The notes under the pieces: model-generated
The model's database searches: none
What the model was told of the DNA's origin: nothing
The model's input: the letters and a program-made list of their open reading frames with translations, nothing else
Shown here: piece after piece, positions 4,048 to 32,701 of the stretch
Layout of the letters: each line of letters starts with the position of its first letter
Position numbering within the stretch: the first letter of the stretch is position 1
Position numbers and translations under genes: made by a program
Sequence record: PZ452594.1
Reading direction: 5' to 3' (one strand)
DNA from: a phage
Length of the DNA stretch: 64,000 bases

Positions 4048-4082
4048 AATTTCCTCATTCAAGTTTTAGTGTAAATTATAAA

Positions 4083-4840: not shown

Positions 4841-5230
4841 TTAACGATTAAAATCAGCCGCAATTGTTTCCGCAACAATTTGAGCAGCAACAATTAGACG
4901 TTCATCTGCATTACCGCAATAATCATCTTCAAGGCGTTCACCGCATGAAGTCATAATAAATTTAGCACCGGCGTTTAGAGATTCTGTAGTATGTTTGCGC
5001 ATTAGTTCAATCCATTTATTACTTACTTCACGATCGATAGCTTCATAATACGCATGACGAGCAGGTGCAGATTTAATTTTATTCTGAATAACTTCCATTG
5101 CGTTATCAGAAAGAGACAAAACCCATGCTCGACGAATTTTATTTTGGTTTTGTGGATTTGATTCAGAACGCACGTGTTTTGGCTGAATATCTTTTACGTC
5201 AACAGTATAATTCACAGTAATTTTAGTCAT
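4841..5230 (-). CDS. rpbA: RNA polymerase binding protein RpbA (129 aa)
   Basis: [31 protein letters not shown]...; size and position as T4 rpbA. Confidence 0.8.
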
Positions 5231-5239
5231 AATACACCT

Positions 5240-5428
5240 TTAGTCATAATAATCAGTAACAGTCCAAGCTTCATTTCTATTGGACATTATTTTTGTATAT
5301 TCTGCTTTAAATGCATTCCTAAGCATAGATTCAGTAACTATATGCTCTTCATTAGAAAAATTATTTCTCAGAATATATCGTTTTATTTCAGGAATAGTTA
5401 ATAGATGCTGTCCAGTTGAATATTCCAT
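5240..5428 (-). CDS. hypothetical protein (62 aa)
   Basis: ORF track; ATG at 5426-5428. Confidence 0.45.
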   Translation of the reverse strand: MEYSTGQHLLTIPEIKRYILRNNFSNEEHIVTESMLRNAFKAEYTKIMSNRNEAWTVTDYYD

Positions 5429-5483: not shown

Positions 5484-7166
5484 TTAAACCATTACAGTAA
5501 ATCGACCAACTTTCTTCATTTGAAGATGCTGACCATATTCTTGCGGGTCATGGTCTTTATGTGAAATTATAAAAACATTAGTGTTTTTCATTGAATTTAT
5601 AATATTAGCTACACCTTTAATACCTTCGGCATCAAATGACCCATCAAACACTTCATCGAGTATTAATGTACTAATACTAACACCAGATACAATAGAAGCA
5701 ATATCACGCCAAGTAAATAAAAGAGCAATATCAATTCGTGCCTTTTCACCTTCACTAAATGAAGCATAACTAAAATCTTCACGACCACGGGATTTAATTG
5801 TCTCATTAAATTCTTCATCTAATGTAAACACATAATCCGCTTCCATTATTTTAAGATAATGGTTAATCTGCTTATTAAATAATGGAATGTACTTTTTAAT
5901 AATAGCACCTTTAATACCAGAATCTTTGAGCATATCAGTCAAAATTCCTCGGTGGTATTTTTCCATTACTAAATTAGTTTTTGTCTTAACAATTTTATCA
6001 AGTTCTTCTTGAAGCAGTGCTATTTCATCGGCATGGTCAATAAACTCAGATGATGCTTTTTCTATAGCCGCTTTAACCTTTTTAGCTTTATCTACCGTCG
6101 TGATTAGAGATTGCTTTTTATTGCGAATATCATTTGCCAACGACTGTTGGGTTTTAATATTATCTCGGTATTCATCAACAAGAACTTTTAAATTATCACG
6201 ATGTGTTGAAAGCTGTTCAAATGAATGTGTGCATTCAGAAACTTTATCTTTAATTTTAGAAACAACTTTATCACCGGAACTTAATTGTGACAAACAGGTT
6301 GGGCATAATCCACCTTCGTGATACATATTAATGACTTTATTATACGAGTCAATTTTTGATTTAATTAAAACTGCTTCTTGACCGATTTTATTAAATGCAT
6401 CAGTCGGATCTTCGTCTAAAACAATATTAACTAATCTTTCATTAGCTTCTTCTATTTCCGATTTTAGCGTTCTAGCTTCTTTTGCCAAATCATCATACAT
6501 ATTCTGCAAACGAGTAAGATTGTCACCCGTTAATTTTTTCTGGCGTTCAACGTTATCATTATATATTTTAATTTGTTGGATAATACTATCTTTTTTAACA
6601 TCAAGCACTTGGTTTTGTGAATTTAATTCACGTATTAGTGCTTTATTAAGCTTATCCATTTCAGCTAATGTTCCTACCTCGAGCAGGTCTTCCACAAGCT
6701 TTCTTCGCGCAGGGGTCGACAAACCCATGAAAGGGGTATACCCTGCTGTACCAAGGACAACAATCTGCTTGAAACTGGCATATGACATTCCGATAAGCTG
6801 TTCAAATTCTGCTTGGAAATCTTTACTGCTGGCAGATTCATTAAGACGTGTACCGTTAACGGTGATTTCGAAAACGTTTGGTTTTTGTCCTCTTTTGATA
6901 TAGTACTTTTTCTCATCATATTCCATCCACAGTTCAACTAAAAGTTCTTTCTTATTTGTGCTGTTTATTAATTGACCTTTCTTTACATCACGAAATGGCT
7001 TACCAAAAAGCCCAAATGTGATGGCTTCTAACATAGTAGACTTACCACCGCCATTTCGTCCAGTAATAAGAGTTTTTTGAACCTTATCTAATTGAATGTC
7101 AACTCCATTTTGACCAACTGACATTATATTTTTATATTTTACTCTATTAAGTTTAAATGATTTCAT
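5484..7166 (-). CDS. 46: recombination endonuclease subunit gp46 (SbcC/Rad50-like, 560 aa)
   Basis: N-terminal Walker A GRNGGGKST, long coiled coil, C-terminal signature region. Confidence 0.9.
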   Translation of the reverse strand: MKSFKLNRVKYKNIMSVGQNGVDIQLDKVQKTLITGRNGGGKSTMLEAITFGLFGKPFRDVKKGQLINSTNKKELLVELWMEYDEKKYYIKRGQKPNVFEITVNGTRLNESASSKDFQAEFEQLIGMSYASFKQIVVLGTAGYTPFMGLSTPARRKLVEDLLEVGTLAEMDKLNKALIRELNSQNQVLDVKKDSIIQQIKIYNDNVERQKKLTGDNLTRLQNMYDDLAKEARTLKSEIEEANERLVNIVLDEDPTDAFNKIGQEAVLIKSKIDSYNKVINMYHEGGLCPTCLSQLSSGDKVVSKIKDKVSECTHSFEQLSTHRDNLKVLVDEYRDNIKTQQSLANDIRNKKQSLITTVDKAKKVKAAIEKASSEFIDHADEIALLQEELDKIVKTKTNLVMEKYHRGILTDMLKDSGIKGAIIKKYIPLFNKQINHYLKIMEADYVFTLDEEFNETIKSRGREDFSYASFSEGEKARIDIALLFTWRDIASIVSGVSISTLILDEVFDGSFDAEGIKGVANIINSMKNTNVFIISHKDHDPQEYGQHLQMKKVGRFTVMV

Positions 7167-7181
7167 TTTGTATCCAATTGT

Positions 7182-8036
7182 TCACAATGAAGAAAATTCT
7201 TTAACTAAAGCCTGTAATGAAGCCTCTATTGGATATCCATTCTTAACTAACATTTTCCTAAACATTACATGTTTAGGACGATTATATGATATCCACAATT
7301 CATACAATTTATCTTTATTATCCCAATGATAGCCTTTTCGTCGAGATGCTATATGAGCTTTTCTAATCTCCGGATTTTTCCAACTAGCAGCTACTGAATT
7401 TGATATAGCTATTTTATATTCAGGTTTTGATAAAGCAGCACGAACAGCCTTTTGGTGTTTAATTTTATTTTCTTCGTTATTAAACCATTCCCTTGAAGCC
7501 ATTGAAATTTTTTGTTTTGTTTTAAAATTATTTAATCTTTCTTTATTATCTTTCCTATTTTTTGCTACTGAAAAATATTTTAATGCCCTTTCTCTAGCAG
7601 CATTTCTATTTTGCGGATTTGAATAATACTGTTGAAGCCTTTTTGATATTGTGTCACTTACATCTTGTTTTATAAAACTATATTCAGCAGCTATTAAATC
7701 AACTTCGGCTAAAGATAAATTTTTATATGTTTTTCCTGACATCATTCTATTTAAAGCATTTAACATTTTTCCATTTTTACCTTTTGCTAATAAGAAGTGT
7801 GCTTTAAAATGATTAAAATGACTTAAATTAACTAAATTCCATGTAGATTTTAAATATTCAGGAAATATTGATTTAGGAAGCACGTGGTGTGCTTCCGTTT
7901 TACCTGGAGTTTTAACAGTTGAATTCACAGAAATAAAATTAATGTAAGACTTGGCGTCTTCTTCACTCAACGCTAATTTTTCAACTAATTCCTTTATTAA
8001 AAATTCATCATTAATGTCAAGTTTAAAATTCTTCAC
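7182..8036 (-). CDS. HNH homing endonuclease-like protein (284 aa) with C-terminal DNA-binding repeats
   Basis: HNH motif EAHHVLPKS...NLVNLSHFNHFKAH; repeated SxxW.NPE.R.AH units; GTG start at 8034-8036. Confidence 0.6.
   Translation of the reverse strand: MKNFKLDINDEFLIKELVEKLALSEEDAKSYINFISVNSTVKTPGKTEAHHVLPKSIFPEYLKSTWNLVNLSHFNHFKAHFLLAKGKNGKMLNALNRMMSGKTYKNLSLAEVDLIAAEYSFIKQDVSDTISKRLQQYYSNPQNRNAARERALKYFSVAKNRKDNKERLNNFKTKQKISMASREWFNNEENKIKHQKAVRAALSKPEYKIAISNSVAASWKNPEIRKAHIASRRKGYHWDNKDKLYELWISYNRPKHVMFRKMLVKNGYPIEASLQALVKEFSSL
8003..8020. repeat. 18-nt direct repeat copy 1 (attcatcattaatgtcaa)
   Basis: identical copy at 8206-8223; both lie at the 5' ends of adjacent ORFs. Confidence 0.8.
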
Positions 8037-8248
8037 AAAAGATTCCTTTTAATGTATCTTTTAGACCATTCTATCATATCATCATAATCTAAAAAGTATT
8101 CATCAAATTCAGCCATGCAAACAACACCTTGTGCTGTTTTTGATGTAATATAAATTATTCCAACATATCTAGAATCTTCTTCGGTATAATCAATGTTTGC
8201 TATGAATTCATCATTAATGTCAAATGTCGAAAACTTCACAGTATGCAT
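8033..8248 (-). CDS. hypothetical protein (71 aa)
   Basis: ATG at 8246-8248 (MHTVKFSTFDINDEF); N-terminus resembles that of the HNH ORF. Confidence 0.4.
   Translation of the reverse strand: MHTVKFSTFDINDEFIANIDYTEEDSRYVGIIYITSKTAQGVVCMAEFDEYFLDYDDMIEWSKRYIKRNLL
8206..8223. repeat. 18-nt direct repeat copy 2
   Basis: identical to 8003-8020. Confidence 0.8.
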
Positions 8249-8483
8249 CCTTAATACAAGATACAGCCATATCTCGTAATGATTTAGGTGTGTCATTATC
8301 TAAAATGTTGAAGTTAAAAGATACAGCCCAGTCAGTGCAGACCGTGACCTTTTTAATACAATTATCTTCAACCTCTAACGGTTCAAACCAATATTCAATA
8401 ATTTCTTTATGCCCAATATCATCTTTTACTTCGCATTCAAAATGCTGACTCATCATAACATTTTTAAATTCATCAAAAGTCAT
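8220..8483 (-). CDS. hypothetical protein (87 aa)
   Basis: ORF track. Confidence 0.45.
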   Translation of the reverse strand: MTFDEFKNVMMSQHFECEVKDDIGHKEIIEYWFEPLEVEDNCIKKVTVCTDWAVSFNFNILDNDTPKSLRDMAVSCIKDAYCEVFDI

Positions 8484-9499
8484 TGTGTTGCCTCTACATA
8501 TAACTGATTTGCATATTGAATAAGTGCTTCACGGTCAGAATCAGTGATGTCTGGAATTGCATTAATGTATTCTTCCATCAACGTCTGAAGCGATTGAACT
8601 TCAACTTCTTCACTGTCATCTGACTCGACAGAGTTATCAATCTTTGACACAACTCGTAACGAATGCACAACTTTTTCTAGTTCAGATTCGAACTTCGTCA
8701 GATTTTTGTCTACTTCAGTTACTATAACACGTACTGATAGATTTGTAAAATCTTTATAGTCAATTTTTCCTTTAAATGGATAATGAATTCTACGGTGCCA
8801 GGTAGTGTTGTTTGGAATAAATTCCATTCGTTCTGTTTCTGTATCAAACATCCAGAACCCGCGAGGGTCATTCTCGTCACCTGCTGTTAGTGTCCATGGT
8901 GTCCCAATATATCTGACGTTTGCAGCCTCAGAAATAGTATGGAAGTGACCAGACCACACTTCTTTATAAGTCTTAAGGAAATCAGGTTCAAGACCGTGAG
9001 ATTTCATTCCTTTATAAAAATAAAATCCATTCAGTTCCCAGTGACCAACACAAAAAGAAGCAGATGAAGTTTTGATGTGTTCAAGAATTTCACCAGTATT
9101 TTCTTCGCACATCCAAGGAATTAAATCAATCAAACATCCGTCAAAATCTACTGTAGTAGGCTTATCATATACTTTAACATTGGGATATTTAGCCAAAAGC
9201 TCAGTAGAGGCATTTGGAGTTAAAGTATTTTTAAAGTGCATATCATGGTTTCCTACAACAGTATGTAGGGTAATACCAGCATCATCAAGCATTTGAACTA
9301 TTTCACGAGCAAACTCCATAGTTTTATGCGTGATTGCTTTTCGCACATCAAAAATATCGCCGTATTGAATCCAGGTAGTAATTCCATTTTTCTTAGAATA
9401 TTCTATTGCTTGTTTAATTCCATCCAACTGAATAGATTGAACCCACTCATCATCGGCTTTAACGCCTAAATGCCAATCACCTAAATTTAAAATTTTCAT
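8480..9499 (-). CDS. 47: recombination endonuclease subunit gp47 (Mre11-like phosphoesterase, 339 aa)
   Basis: MKILNLGDWHLG...GNHD... calcineurin-like motifs. Confidence 0.9.
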   Translation of the reverse strand: MKILNLGDWHLGVKADDEWVQSIQLDGIKQAIEYSKKNGITTWIQYGDIFDVRKAITHKTMEFAREIVQMLDDAGITLHTVVGNHDMHFKNTLTPNASTELLAKYPNVKVYDKPTTVDFDGCLIDLIPWMCEENTGEILEHIKTSSASFCVGHWELNGFYFYKGMKSHGLEPDFLKTYKEVWSGHFHTISEAANVRYIGTPWTLTAGDENDPRGFWMFDTETERMEFIPNNTTWHRRIHYPFKGKIDYKDFTNLSVRVIVTEVDKNLTKFESELEKVVHSLRVVSKIDNSVESDDSEEVEVQSLQTLMEEYINAIPDITDSDREALIQYANQLYVEATQ

Positions 9500-9636: not shown

Positions 9637-9662
9637 TATATCAAACTCCGTATAAAGCTAAA

Positions 9663-9674
9663 GGGCCGAAGCCC
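9663..9674 (-). terminator. GGGCUUCGGCCC hairpin just 3' of a-gt
   Basis: plus gggccgaagccc abutting a-gt stop. Confidence 0.45.
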
Positions 9675-9675
9675 T

Positions 9676-10878
9676 TTATTTTGTAATAATGTCAAACTGT
9701 TCTTTAAAGCAGAAGCTTGAATCTTGATGCTGATACAAAAATTCATACGCTTTTTCTCGCTCACGGTCATAAAGAGCTCGGTCAGATGACAGTTCTTTAA
9801 TACGCTCGAATGTTGATTCCATATCATTTTCATCAAACCAAATGATACCGCTATCATGCGAGGTCAAAGGAGTATTATCAACACGGAATTTTAAATTTTC
9901 GCCAGTAGATTTCCAAAATACCGGAATTGTTCCACATGCACCAAGCTCGAGATGAGTATATTCTAAAGAACGTTGTAGATATTTTTTATCCAACTTACTC
10001 AACTGATAACCAAATCCGGATTTACTCATGCGTTCAAGCATTTCGCTATTTACATAACGGTCAAGAATTTGCGTTGGCAAATTAGGAGCAATTTTAATTT
10101 GGTCTACTTGATGAAGACGATAATATTCATATGGAATTCCCTTTTCTTTAATAGGAATGAACGCTGGAGAACGTTCCAGACCTTCCATAATAGTACTTAG
10201 TCCTGCAGGTTTAAGATGTTTTTCGTGAAAATCAAACATCTGATAAAAACCTTTCCATGTAGTCGTACGACCAATCCAACGGTTAACATTCATGTTAATT
10301 TCAGAAACATCTTTCCAGTATGTTGATCGAACCTTCGCAATATCCATAGGAGGCTGAAAGTTGTATACGGTCGGTGCTTCTTCAATATCATCAAACAGAG
10401 AAACTGTTTCTGGATACCATTCTTTCATCAGAACTTTATTAAAATCGCCATTATCAGAATGACTAAAAATAACATCAGCTCGACGAACAGTTTCTTCTAA
10501 TCCCAAATTTCGGCGCAAAGAAAGAGAAGAATGGTCATGTTGATAAACTACAACACGAACCGAAGGTTTAATGTTATCAATAATTTTTTTATAGTTATTA
10601 ATAGTGTCTTCTTCAACCGAAGTAGCAGGAACTGAATTGATAATTAGAATATCACAATCATTTACCAGCTTAAGTGTTTTATCGTATTCTTTTGCCAATA
10701 AAACCGGAATTGAAAATGATTTATAATCATGCGCGCAATTACGAGTAAATGATTTATCTTTAGCATAAACCAAAGTTACTTCATGACCATTTTTAATAAA
10801 CCAATCACGTTGCTCAAGAGAAAATTTAGTTACACCGCAACCTTCAAGACCTCGAGCCATAAAAATACATACTTTCAT
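9676..10878 (-). CDS. a-gt: DNA alpha-glucosyltransferase (400 aa)
   Basis: MKVCIFMARGLEGCGVTKFSLEQRDWFIKNGHEVTLVYAKDK... close to T4 AGT. Confidence 0.85.
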   Translation of the reverse strand: MKVCIFMARGLEGCGVTKFSLEQRDWFIKNGHEVTLVYAKDKSFTRNCAHDYKSFSIPVLLAKEYDKTLKLVNDCDILIINSVPATSVEEDTINNYKKIIDNIKPSVRVVVYQHDHSSLSLRRNLGLEETVRRADVIFSHSDNGDFNKVLMKEWYPETVSLFDDIEEAPTVYNFQPPMDIAKVRSTYWKDVSEINMNVNRWIGRTTTWKGFYQMFDFHEKHLKPAGLSTIMEGLERSPAFIPIKEKGIPYEYYRLHQVDQIKIAPNLPTQILDRYVNSEMLERMSKSGFGYQLSKLDKKYLQRSLEYTHLELGACGTIPVFWKSTGENLKFRVDNTPLTSHDSGIIWFDENDMESTFERIKELSSDRALYDREREKAYEFLYQHQDSSFCFKEQFDIITK

Positions 10879-24872: not shown

Positions 24873-24897
24873 TTTTGTTCCTCCGTAGTTGATAGTT

Positions 24898-31951: not shown

Positions 31952-32140
31952 TTAGTCCTTAGTTAAATTTTCTAAATATGTTTCTAAATCATTTTCAGCT
32001 TTATCGATAGATTTTACTAATTCGTAATATGTTTCGGCATCTCCATAATCAGAAGATAATTCAAAAGACAAATCCTTTTCTAAACTAATAATTTCACCAA
32101 CTAAAAATAATATTTCGTTCTTTTGTTCGCGAGTAATCAT
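31952..32140 (-). CDS. small helical protein (62 aa); small-paralogue family
   Basis: MITREQKNEILFLVGEIISLEKDL... Confidence 0.4.
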   Translation of the reverse strand: MITREQKNEILFLVGEIISLEKDLSFELSSDYGDAETYYELVKSIDKAENDLETYLENLTKD

Positions 32141-32322
32141 AAAGAATTTATATAATCAATGAGTTCTTGTTCTTTATTATCGAATTCTTTAGAAAGTTCT
32201 TCGTATTCATTTGCATTAAAAGGACCGCATTCATCACAAACTTTTTCCAATTCACTGTTTTTATCCATAACTTCGTGGATAAGAGAAAAGAGTTTGTCTT
32301 TTTGTTCTTTGCTTAAACTCAT
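32137..32322 (-). CDS. small helical protein (61 aa); small-paralogue family
   Basis: MSLSKEQKDKLFSLIHEVMDKNSELEKVCDECG... Confidence 0.4.
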   Translation of the reverse strand: MSLSKEQKDKLFSLIHEVMDKNSELEKVCDECGPFNANEYEELSKEFDNKEQELIDYINSL

Positions 32323-32492
32323 ATATTAATTTCCAAAAGTTTTAAAATAATTCGCTTTTGCTTAAATATTTCCACAGTTAAATGATCAGTATCTTTTTGA
32401 CCAATTCCAATGGCAAAACCTTTATTAACAGCGAGTTCAATTAAATTATCAAGTTCACGTAACACTTCATATTGTAACTCAGAACTATTCAT
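32319..32492 (-). CDS. small protein (57 aa), ATGA-coupled to both neighbours
   Basis: hand-translated MNSSELQYEVLRELDNLIELAVNKGFAIGIGQKDTDHLTVEIFKQKRIILKLLEINI. Confidence 0.35.
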   Translation of the reverse strand: MNSSELQYEVLRELDNLIELAVNKGFAIGIGQKDTDHLTVEIFKQKRIILKLLEINI

Positions 32493-32701
32493 TTCGGTTT
32501 ACCTTCTTTAACGAAATCTGGATAAGGATAAAATCCCGAATAAAATCCTTCACCTTTATGATTGATGCATCCTTTATTAGAACAATAGCACCAATAATCG
32601 AAATCACAAGCCATTTCATCGTTGCATAAAGCAAAAACAACCGGCCATTTACACTTTTCACAGTGGGCATTTTTAAGAATACTAGTTTGGCTCATAACCA
32701 T
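32489..32701 (-). CDS. Cys-rich small protein (70 aa), probable metal-binding
   Basis: HCEKCKW...CNDEMACDFDYWCYCSNKGCINHKGEG; preferred over the overlapping alternative frame 32485..32670. Confidence 0.4.
   Translation of the reverse strand: MVMSQTSILKNAHCEKCKWPVVFALCNDEMACDFDYWCYCSNKGCINHKGEGFYSGFYPYPDFVKEGKPK

Follow-up and report, generated by a model that had tools for sequence, protein, structure and literature searches.

A Mob-type HNH homing endonuclease gene that appears to have captured, and replaced, the start of gene 46 in T4-like phages

The DNA analysed here (the window) is a 64-kb stretch of record PZ452594.1, a Tequatrovirus (T4-like) genome, and it carries on its minus strand, in the order gene 47, 46.2, 46.1, the ORF in question and gene 46, an open reading frame (ORF) for a protein of 284 aa. 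We read this ORF as a free-standing Mob-type HNH homing endonuclease gene (HEG) that lies within the 5′ end of the essential recombination gene 46, having captured the start of that gene and supplied a replacement for it, and we give this reading a probability of about 0.75. The gene itself is of a known kind and is already annotated, RefSeq listing it as 'homing endonuclease'; what is undescribed is the in-frame capture of a start combined with a donated one, the recurrence in three genera, and a linked patch of substitutions in gene 46. A full-text literature search, which covered few subscription journals, returned no description of the architecture or of the element, and a review of T4 mobile elements is silent on any HEG at genes 46/47. 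A 2010 survey counted one 'other HNH' gene each for T2, T6 and RB51 in a table without positions (PMC2993671), and this count probably includes the gene-46 HEG. An earlier note on this DNA had proposed a 284-aa HNH homing endonuclease gene here and doubted that T4 has one at this place. Both claims hold up, the first through MobD similarity, a PHROG 655 match and conserved HNH residues, the second because T4 lacks the gene; the note had, however, placed the gene between genes 46 and 47, whereas alignment with T4 puts the insertion after codon 6 of gene 46.

Relative to T4, the window holds an additional 870-bp block at this point; over 6900-8700 the identity of the window to RB51 and RB68 is 99.3%. 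An exact 9-bp direct repeat, TTTAAACTT (8019-8027 and 7149-7157), stands on either side of the block, whose position is therefore ambiguous by up to 9 nt; at the right junction HEG-less T4-type records match only from TTTAAACTT onward. The 46.1 stop and the gene 46 start of T4 overlap (...CTTTTGTGAAGAATTTTAAACTT followed directly by AATAGAGTAAAATAT...), and a three-way alignment has T4 reading GTGAAGAATTTTAAACTT and then AATAGAG. The window begins with the same 18 nt, GTGAAGAATTTTAAACTT, continues with GACATTAATGATGAATT... and only later arrives at ATGAAATCATTTAAACTT followed by AATAGAG. Read at greater length, GTGAAGAATTTTAAACTT is succeeded by GACATTAATGATGAATTT... and the body of the HEG, the HEG stop by ACAATTGGATACAAA, and this in turn by ATGAAATCATTTAAACTT joined to AATAGAGTAAAATAT.... 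The length of the block, 870 or 3 x 290, puts the HEG and gene 46 in one reading frame.

The consequence for the two starts is a simple exchange. The captured GTG, at 8036, overlaps the 46.1 stop (GTGA) and stands behind an AAGGA Shine-Dalgarno sequence; no other in-frame start precedes the conserved N-terminal helix. Since the next in-frame TTG/GTG codons, at HEG codons 23 and 37, would cost helices that are conserved in the family, the HEG would be translated from the original coupled start of gene 46. Its beginning, VKNFKL, follows from the use of the GTG of gene 46, and the earlier view of these first residues as 46.1-like has to be given up. What that view had missed is that the first six codons of gene 46 are present twice (8019-8036 and 7149-7166), the second copy being the new start. 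This replacement matches the captured 5′ end at 13 of 18 positions, its first five codons also begin gene 46 of the HEG-less Mosigvirus SSE1, and gp46 remains a protein of 560 aa whose sole change is N3S. Starts of T4 HEGs that overlap upstream stops have been noted before (PMC2988022); the new feature is the capture of the host gene's own start together with the supply of a substitute.

HEG and new gene 46 are separated by only a TGA and five codons. Read-through of this TGA, at 7182-7184, would yield a HEG-gp46 fusion; the chance of such an in-frame arrangement is one in three, and nothing suggests that read-through occurs. Other kinds of signal and element at the site were considered and rejected. 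That the HEG has a promoter or terminator to itself was dismissed: the late-promoter sequence TATAAATA is absent from the block, and its sigma-70-like and terminator-like matches stand at the level of shuffled sequence. RNA structure at the HEG start, at the new gene 46 start and at the T4 junction gave z-scores of -0.4 to +0.5, with nothing found. A group I intron or other RNA family was rejected for lack of any Rfam match at E<=1 in 6800-8800, and an intein for lack of a Hint or intein Pfam domain, a stop codon and new start moreover separating the two ORFs. The idea that the spacer and the HEG 3′ end are a remnant of the 3′ end of 46.1 was likewise dropped, alignments to five genera giving p 0.18-0.9 against shuffles.

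Table 1. Features of the gene 46 region and of the inserted element (window coordinates).
Feature	Position	Strand	Basis or remark
Gene 47	8480-9499	-	
46.2	8220-8483	-	
Gene 46.1 (DUF5487), intact; TGA stop overlaps HEG start	8033-8239	-	Pfam DUF5487 2.3e-49; T4 annotation
HEG ORF, 284 aa, GTG start, TGA stop at 7182-7184	7182-8036	-	ORF list
Gene 46 (Rad50/SbcC-like), 560 aa as in T4, N3S	5484-7166	-	
870-bp (290-codon) block missing in T4	7149-8018	-	Window/T4/RB68 alignment, junction table
Captured original gene 46 5′ end, GTG AAG AAT TTT AAA CTT (VKNFKL), now HEG codons 1-6	8019-8036	-	Identical to T4 gene 46 start and upstream context
15-nt spacer ACAATTGGATACAAA, HEG stop to new gene 46 ATG, in frame with both ORFs	7167-7181	-	Only in HEG+ records
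Replacement gene 46 5′ end, ATG AAA TCA TTT AAA CTT (MKSFKL; ATGAAATCATTTAAACTT)	7149-7166	-	
HEG copy of 19-nt repeat (TTGACATTAATGATGAATT on coding strand), HEG codons 7-12 DINDEF, at left insertion junction	8002-8020	-	Absent here in T4
Resident copy of 19-nt repeat, codons 6-12 of 46.1	8205-8223	-	Present in HEG-less T4
HNH catalytic core H50-H51 ... N67 ... H76 ... H80	7797-7889	-	Strand 47-51, strand 68-72, helix 73-84
Three degenerate NUMOD3-like helical units, aa ~129-235, presumed DNA-binding region	7332-7652	-	Unit comparison, homologue alignments
HEG-linked variant patch, gene 46 codons 6-22, candidate recognition/immunity region	7101-7151	-	
A6 run, one base lost in RB51, RB68 and Ac3, giving HEG frameshift	7508-7513	-	
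A4 run, separate 2-nt loss in T2, giving HEG frameshift	7425-7428	-	

The family assignment of the 284-aa protein rests on several searches. In tblastn comparisons it is 30% identical to T4 MobD (aa 47-281, E 2e-11), and many further matches are annotated as Mob-like or HNH endonucleases; PHROG 655, 'homing endonuclease', matches over aa 1-282 at 7.8e-45. Homology to the Mob family thereby spans both the nuclease and the C-terminal region. A word-indexed protein search returned 6 matches and an exhaustive HMMER search 967 relatives, among which aa 1-12 were covered only by fragments of the same gene. An alignment of 30 diverse homologues shows H50, H51, P54, N67, H76 and H80 to be invariant. 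In HNH, or His-Me finger, nucleases the general-base histidine stands at the end of the first strand, an asparagine follows, and a metal-ligand histidine lies in the next helix. The AlphaFold2 model (mean predicted local distance difference test score, pLDDT, of 93) has a strand at 47-51, a strand at 68-72 and a helix at 73-84, onto which H50, H51, N67, H76 and H80 map, and then a long helical region; the two predicted strands and the helix are weakly suggestive of the His-Me finger arrangement. No sequence match for the query was found in the PDB. Among the homologues, PF01844 is matched by 4 of 30, HNH_4 by 2 of 30 and HNH_5 by 2 of 30, and since some relatives match a curated HNH profile that the query does not, its HNH homology is transitive only. 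We class the ORF as a putative Mob-type HNH endonuclease on the motif and on this transitive homology. A palindrome with a 9-bp stem, GGAAGCACGTGGTGTGCTTCC (7876-7896), lies exactly over the catalytic EAHHVLP codons and was scored as terminator-like on the plus strand in a scan.

The C-terminal region had been described in the earlier note as repeated, DNA-binding-like units. Three units are indeed present (ISKRLQQYYSNPQNR, ISMASREWFNNEENK and ISNSVAASWKNPEIR), but they are only weakly alike, with pairwise p of 0.05-0.4, and the query itself has no NUMOD3 Pfam match. NUMOD3 (PF07460) is matched by the aligned region of 8 of the 30 homologues (best 1.9e-20), and the NUMOD-like domain of I-HmuI (PF22083) by 4 of the 30.

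Near-identical genomes either carry the block or lack it, always at a single fixed site and with identical junctions. In a survey of 518 related phage (Tequatrovirus) records it was found in 71-72, including T2, T6, RB51, RB68, PP01 and EC121, while the site is uninterrupted in 446; the empty site that the earlier note had suggested seeking in relatives thus exists, both in T4 and in most of these records. Empty sites fall into two kinds, about 74 of T4 type and about 372 of RB14 type, and those of T4 type are identical to the HEG carriers downstream of the junction. The HEG of the window is intact and identical to cluster P0001 of 85 member sequences. The homopolymer frameshifts of RB51/RB68 and of T2 (Table 1) are independent of one another, which is the decay expected of a HEG. 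Further relatives sought in IMG/VR or metagenomes were either not found or were distant HNH genes away from gene 46. One record is peculiar: phage Ac3 (OK040907.1, locus 1542 to at least 2687) is otherwise RB51-like, but between the start of the HEG and a point within gene 46 it departs from the window and RB68 almost only synonymously, with changes towards codons preferred in E. coli (GC 44% vs 27%, nucleotide identity ~72%). Its HEG protein is identical up to the RB51-type frameshift, and the GTG start is written GTT; the stretch has the look of synthetic, codon-optimised DNA or of contamination in the assembly, and not of natural divergence.

Related genes occupy the same spot in two further genera. 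At E<=1e-30 the HEG clade comprises 86 records, of which 71 are Tequatrovirus, 10 Mosigvirus and 5 Gelderlandvirus; the homologues of the latter two genera are 44-55% identical, and the HEG lies directly upstream of gene 46 in every locus inspected. In Mosigvirus phiEC1 the HEG begins with ATGACGAAGACTGATTATGAAA (MTKTDYE), the first 22 nt of 46.1 in the HEG-less SSE1, and replaces the remainder of 46.1, being fused to its first 7 codons. A full 46.1 is found in 142 HEG-less Mosigvirus records, and 10 keep only the 22 nt joined to the HEG. Among 16 closely matching Gelderlandvirus records, 5 carry the HEG and 11 do not; here it starts exactly where the start of 46.1 (in S16) or of gene 46 (in STML-198) overlaps the gene 47 stop. 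Judged from these sequences, the HEG family repeatedly takes over a resident coupled start. The Gelderlandvirus interval between genes 47 and 46 exists in three states: a direct overlap of gene 46 with the gene 47 stop in STML-198, a 46.1 homologue in S16, and the HEG in UoN_LG358_1.

How the element came to its place in Tequatrovirus can be approached through a second, longer repeat. The earlier note had observed an 18-mer shared by two ORF starts (8003-8020 and 8206-8223); the match is exact and extends by one base, to the 19-nt repeat AATTCATCATTAATGTCAA at 8002-8020 and 8205-8223. Within the 64-kb window only these two matches with <=2 mismatches occur, shuffles expecting 0.02, and in Markov-shuffled windows the number of 19-mer pairs is 0.11 overall and 0 at distances up to 500 nt. 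Similarity in register covers 45 nt (7993-8037 vs 8196-8240) at 78%. Counted from their GTGs (that of 46.1 taken at 8239, per the RefSeq annotation in T4), HEG and 46.1 agree in codons 1-2 (GTG AAG), differ in codons 3-6 and agree again in codons 7-11, codon 12 differing only, and synonymously, at its third base. Any homology past codon 12 was not relied on, the protein comparison being borderline (p ~0.03) and DNA similarity absent (p 0.92). The 19-mer occurs once in HEG-less T4, in 46.1, and DINDEF of 46.1 aligns ungapped with NLDDEF and NLGNGW of 46.1 homologues from other genera. Since the sequence is both present in T4 46.1 and native to the family, the 46.1 copy is the original and the HEG copy derived, which supports a view of the 19-mer as a recombination footprint. 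The earlier note had likewise proposed an insertion or recombination footprint, and this part stands, the HEG copy lying at the left junction and the 46.1 copy being resident; what it overlooked is the duplication of the gene 46 start. It had also held that the 18-mer in genomes lacking the HNH gene would speak against a footprint. The 18-mer is found once in HEG-less genomes, an occurrence that identifies 46.1 as its source and leaves the footprint reading standing.

By analogy with its Mosigvirus homologue, an earlier form of the element was probably joined to 46.1 behind codon 12. The 5′ ends of 46.1 and 46 are alike, being identical at 12 of 18 positions and both reading TGTGAAG...TT; a crossover in register between them could then have moved the element downstream and restored 46.1, which would yield the structure now seen. 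The main alternative, which we consider less probable, is a one-step history: illegitimate (microhomology-mediated) repair would have placed the block in a break within gene 46, the DINDEF patch of 17-19 nt being filler templated from 46.1, 203 bp upstream, and no 46.1::HEG fusion would ever have existed in Tequatrovirus. The patch is short, exact, at the junction and close to its source, as such filler should be, and the lack of DNA similarity between HEG and 46.1 past codon 12 suits this history too. Moreover, the deletion variant of 203 bp that the earlier note had predicted occurs in none of the 60 HEG+ records listed, out of 71, and all 60 have the two repeat pieces 203 bp apart, and a junction 29-mer gave no match in metagenome or IMG/VR collections. 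Against such filler stand the perfect codon register of the copy with 46.1 from both start codons and the Mosigvirus homologue, in which the first 7 codons of the local 46.1 lead into the HEG; this fusion makes a fusion ancestor the more economical account. Because neither a fusion nor a deletion form was found in Tequatrovirus, the two-step history is drawn from the Mosigvirus analogy only.

It is very improbable that the 19-mer is instead a functional cis-element kept by selection or gene conversion, for example a translational operator of coupled starts or part of a recognition site. Both copies are equidistant from a coupled GTG start and their exact identity is retained in most HEG+ records, as a cis-element would have it. 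T2, however, has a substitution in the HEG copy (window position 8016), RB68 differs beside the 46.1 copy, no significant RNA structure was detected, and the 64-kb window holds no further copy. In addition, the HEG and 46.1 of Mosigvirus share an entirely different 22-mer, so that the recurring feature is identity with the local 46.1 start, not a motif.

Throughout the three genera a dense cluster of substitutions separates HEG+ from HEG- genomes, and it is confined to codons 1-22 of gene 46 (the first ~65 nt). RB14-type empty sites show 13 differences in the first 60 nt past the junction and 0-2 per 60 nt elsewhere. Counted per 30 nt from the gene 46 start, mismatches number 11, 4, 4 and then 0-1 for the window vs RB14, 2, 9, 3, 2 and then 0-1 for phiEC1 vs SSE1, and 8, 15, 1, 1 and then 0-2 for UoN vs STML-198. 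At the protein level carriers read Y(K/S)NIMSVGQ and non-carriers, including a HEG-less fourth genus, YQNIMSVGG, with K/S12 and Q19 in the former vs Q12 and G19 in the latter. The T4 allele, YKNIMSVGQN, is shared only with HEG carriers. RB14 reads GTGAAGAATTTTAAACTAAACCGAGTTAGG... in this region. The gene 46 start of the window, ATGAAATCA, is as in HEG-less Mosigvirus, and that of phiEC1, GTGAAAACA, is as in Gelderlandvirus STML-198; the Gelderlandvirus carrier UoN_LG358_1 and the T4 type have 24 nt in common, TTTAAACTTAATAGAGTAAAATAT. The resemblance of each carrier's first gene 46 codons to those of another genus suggests transfer between genera together with short flanks. Farther away, some genomes differ from the window in gene 47, ~1.1-1.4 kb upstream of the junction, by 9-11 mismatches per 60 nt; these blocks form a second mosaic patch that does not track HEG presence.

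These patterns can be accommodated by a homing model. The enzyme would cut HEG-less gene 46 alleles near codons 7-22, double-strand-break repair would copy the block into the cut allele, and the patch at codons 7-22 most likely makes carriers uncleavable. RB14-type genomes would then be targets, and T4-type genomes empty but immune, possibly through a deletion between the 9-bp repeats. An opposite assignment, in which the T4-type allele is cut across the insertion point, is the competing proposal; since carriers of a free-standing HEG usually owe their protection to substitutions in the target sequence, we favour YQNIMSVGG as the target and the carrier patch as the immunity. A wider scenario is put forward only tentatively, as a possibility that we would not yet call probable: a Mob clade specialised for the first codons of gene 46 might move between genera of the Tevenvirinae, taking the coupled start of whatever it displaces (46, 46.1 or the gene 47-stop site) and handing gene 46 a donor start. 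The T4 5′ allele YKNIMSVGQN would in that case be the footprint of the element, T4-type genomes having lost the HEG by deletion between the TTTAAACTT repeats while staying immune, and the RB14-type majority allele would be its natural target.

Several observations weigh against the reading of this ORF as a homing endonuclease gene seated in gene 46. The query itself has no Pfam or NCBIfam HNH match (E<=0.1), no 46.1::HEG fusion or 203-bp deletion form exists in the 60 listed HEG+ Tequatrovirus records, and the full-text search found no paper on cleavage or homing by the 284-aa protein. In addition, the one junction structure in all inspected HEG+ Tequatrovirus fits a single old insertion spread by ordinary recombination as well as it does active homing. 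From this last point it could be argued that the ORF is an immobile relic, or domesticated, descending from one ancient insertion by vertical inheritance and ordinary recombination, with the gene 46 patch as ordinary mosaicism. Identical junctions throughout the HEG+ Tequatrovirus records, the frameshifted copies in T2 and RB51/RB68, and a literature search that found no experimental record for the element would all be expected of a relic. We nevertheless consider this improbable, given that the intact 284-aa form is the commonest (cluster P0001, 85 sequences), that the catalytic residues are conserved, and that related HEGs sit at the same site in three genera, each accompanied by a patch in the first ~65 nt of gene 46 between otherwise near-identical flanks, a pattern that neutral mosaicism is unlikely to produce three times.

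Viewed as a Mob-type HEG, the gene-46 element resembles known systems in part. MobE, a free-standing HNH homing endonuclease of the T4 Mob family, has been characterised (PMC2790892), and at nrdA/mobE its start overlaps the upstream stop as UAAUGA (PMC2988022), just as the start of the gene-46 HEG does. With MobE and MobD the gene-46 HEG, 30% identical to the latter, has in common an N-terminal HNH core followed by helical repeats that are presumed to bind DNA, a free-standing position beside conserved DNA-metabolism genes and a patchy occurrence among close relatives. It differs from MobE in its place, however, as MobE lies between nrdA and nrdB and has its own AUG, whereas the gene-46 HEG lies inside the gene 46 coding sequence and uses the host start and six codons. 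A Mob-type HEG within an essential phage gene, with a compensating arrangement that preserves function, is also known from the mobE-like HEG that splits nrdA in Aeh1 (PMC3045599) and from T4 mobA between genes 60 and 39. In those two cases two polypeptides reassemble; here six duplicated codons are displaced and gp46 is one full-length protein.

Other parallels concern homing itself. For SegF and SegG of T4, PMC2993671 and PMC2988022 cite homing without an intron, in which flanking markers are co-converted, reportedly the work of Belle et al. in 2002 and Liu et al. in 2003. Like these, the gene-46 element is a free-standing HEG whose carriers have clustered substitutions beside the insertion, and clustered flanking substitutions are the expected signature of cleavage-site immunity and co-conversion. 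Unlike it, SegF and SegG are GIY-YIG enzymes encoded between genes, for which cleavage and marker exclusion were shown experimentally. HEGs borne by introns or inteins can be read in frame with their host gene, and the gene-46 insertion resembles them in being a multiple of three, in frame, read from the host start and placed at a fixed site in a coding sequence. It has neither intron nor intein, however, and its stop and second start make the arrangement one of initiation, not of splicing. Finally, I-HmuI (Pfam PF22083) has an HNH nuclease followed by NUMOD-type helices, an order of domains that the gene-46 HEG probably shares; it differs in being intron-encoded and in nicking one strand, and the query has no direct sequence or structure match to it.

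Free-standing HEGs are usually described between genes. The gene-46 HEG would represent a different way to inhabit an essential gene without intron, intein or split protein, in that it appropriates the coupled start of its host gene and gives back the codons it displaced, duplicated and under a new start. It makes specific predictions, namely a cut site in codons 7-22 of gene 46 and a localised marker exclusion around that gene, and classical phages offer several states in which these might be observed: T6 is intact, T2 has a natural frameshift, and T4 and RB14 represent the two empty alleles. The element would also explain why the Rad50-like gp46 is locally hypervariable near its N-terminus. 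Short gene 46 flanking tracts apparently travel with it between three genera.

Some minor observations concern the surroundings of gene 46 and the rest of the window. RB68 has, on the strand opposite to gene 46 and abutting its 3′ end, a second annotated homing endonuclease gene (record 31961-32674); at the same side the window has 45.2 and rpbA as in T4 (5240-5428 and 4841-5230). Other exact direct repeats of 19-24 nt occur in the window at 24885/42097, 26590/42101, 26624/42135, 46067/46367 and 14176/46401 (for example GTAGTTGATAGTTGTATAGTACCA and TTGATAGGGTAATAGTATCACTAC), and these scattered repeats may represent promoters or regulatory sequences that are shared. There are several copies of a GC-rich hairpin, AAAGGGCCGAAGCCCTT, at 4079, 9659 and 13299 (also 1885/40658), of which the one at 9659-9678 scores as terminator-like; such recurring hairpins are probably shared intrinsic terminators.

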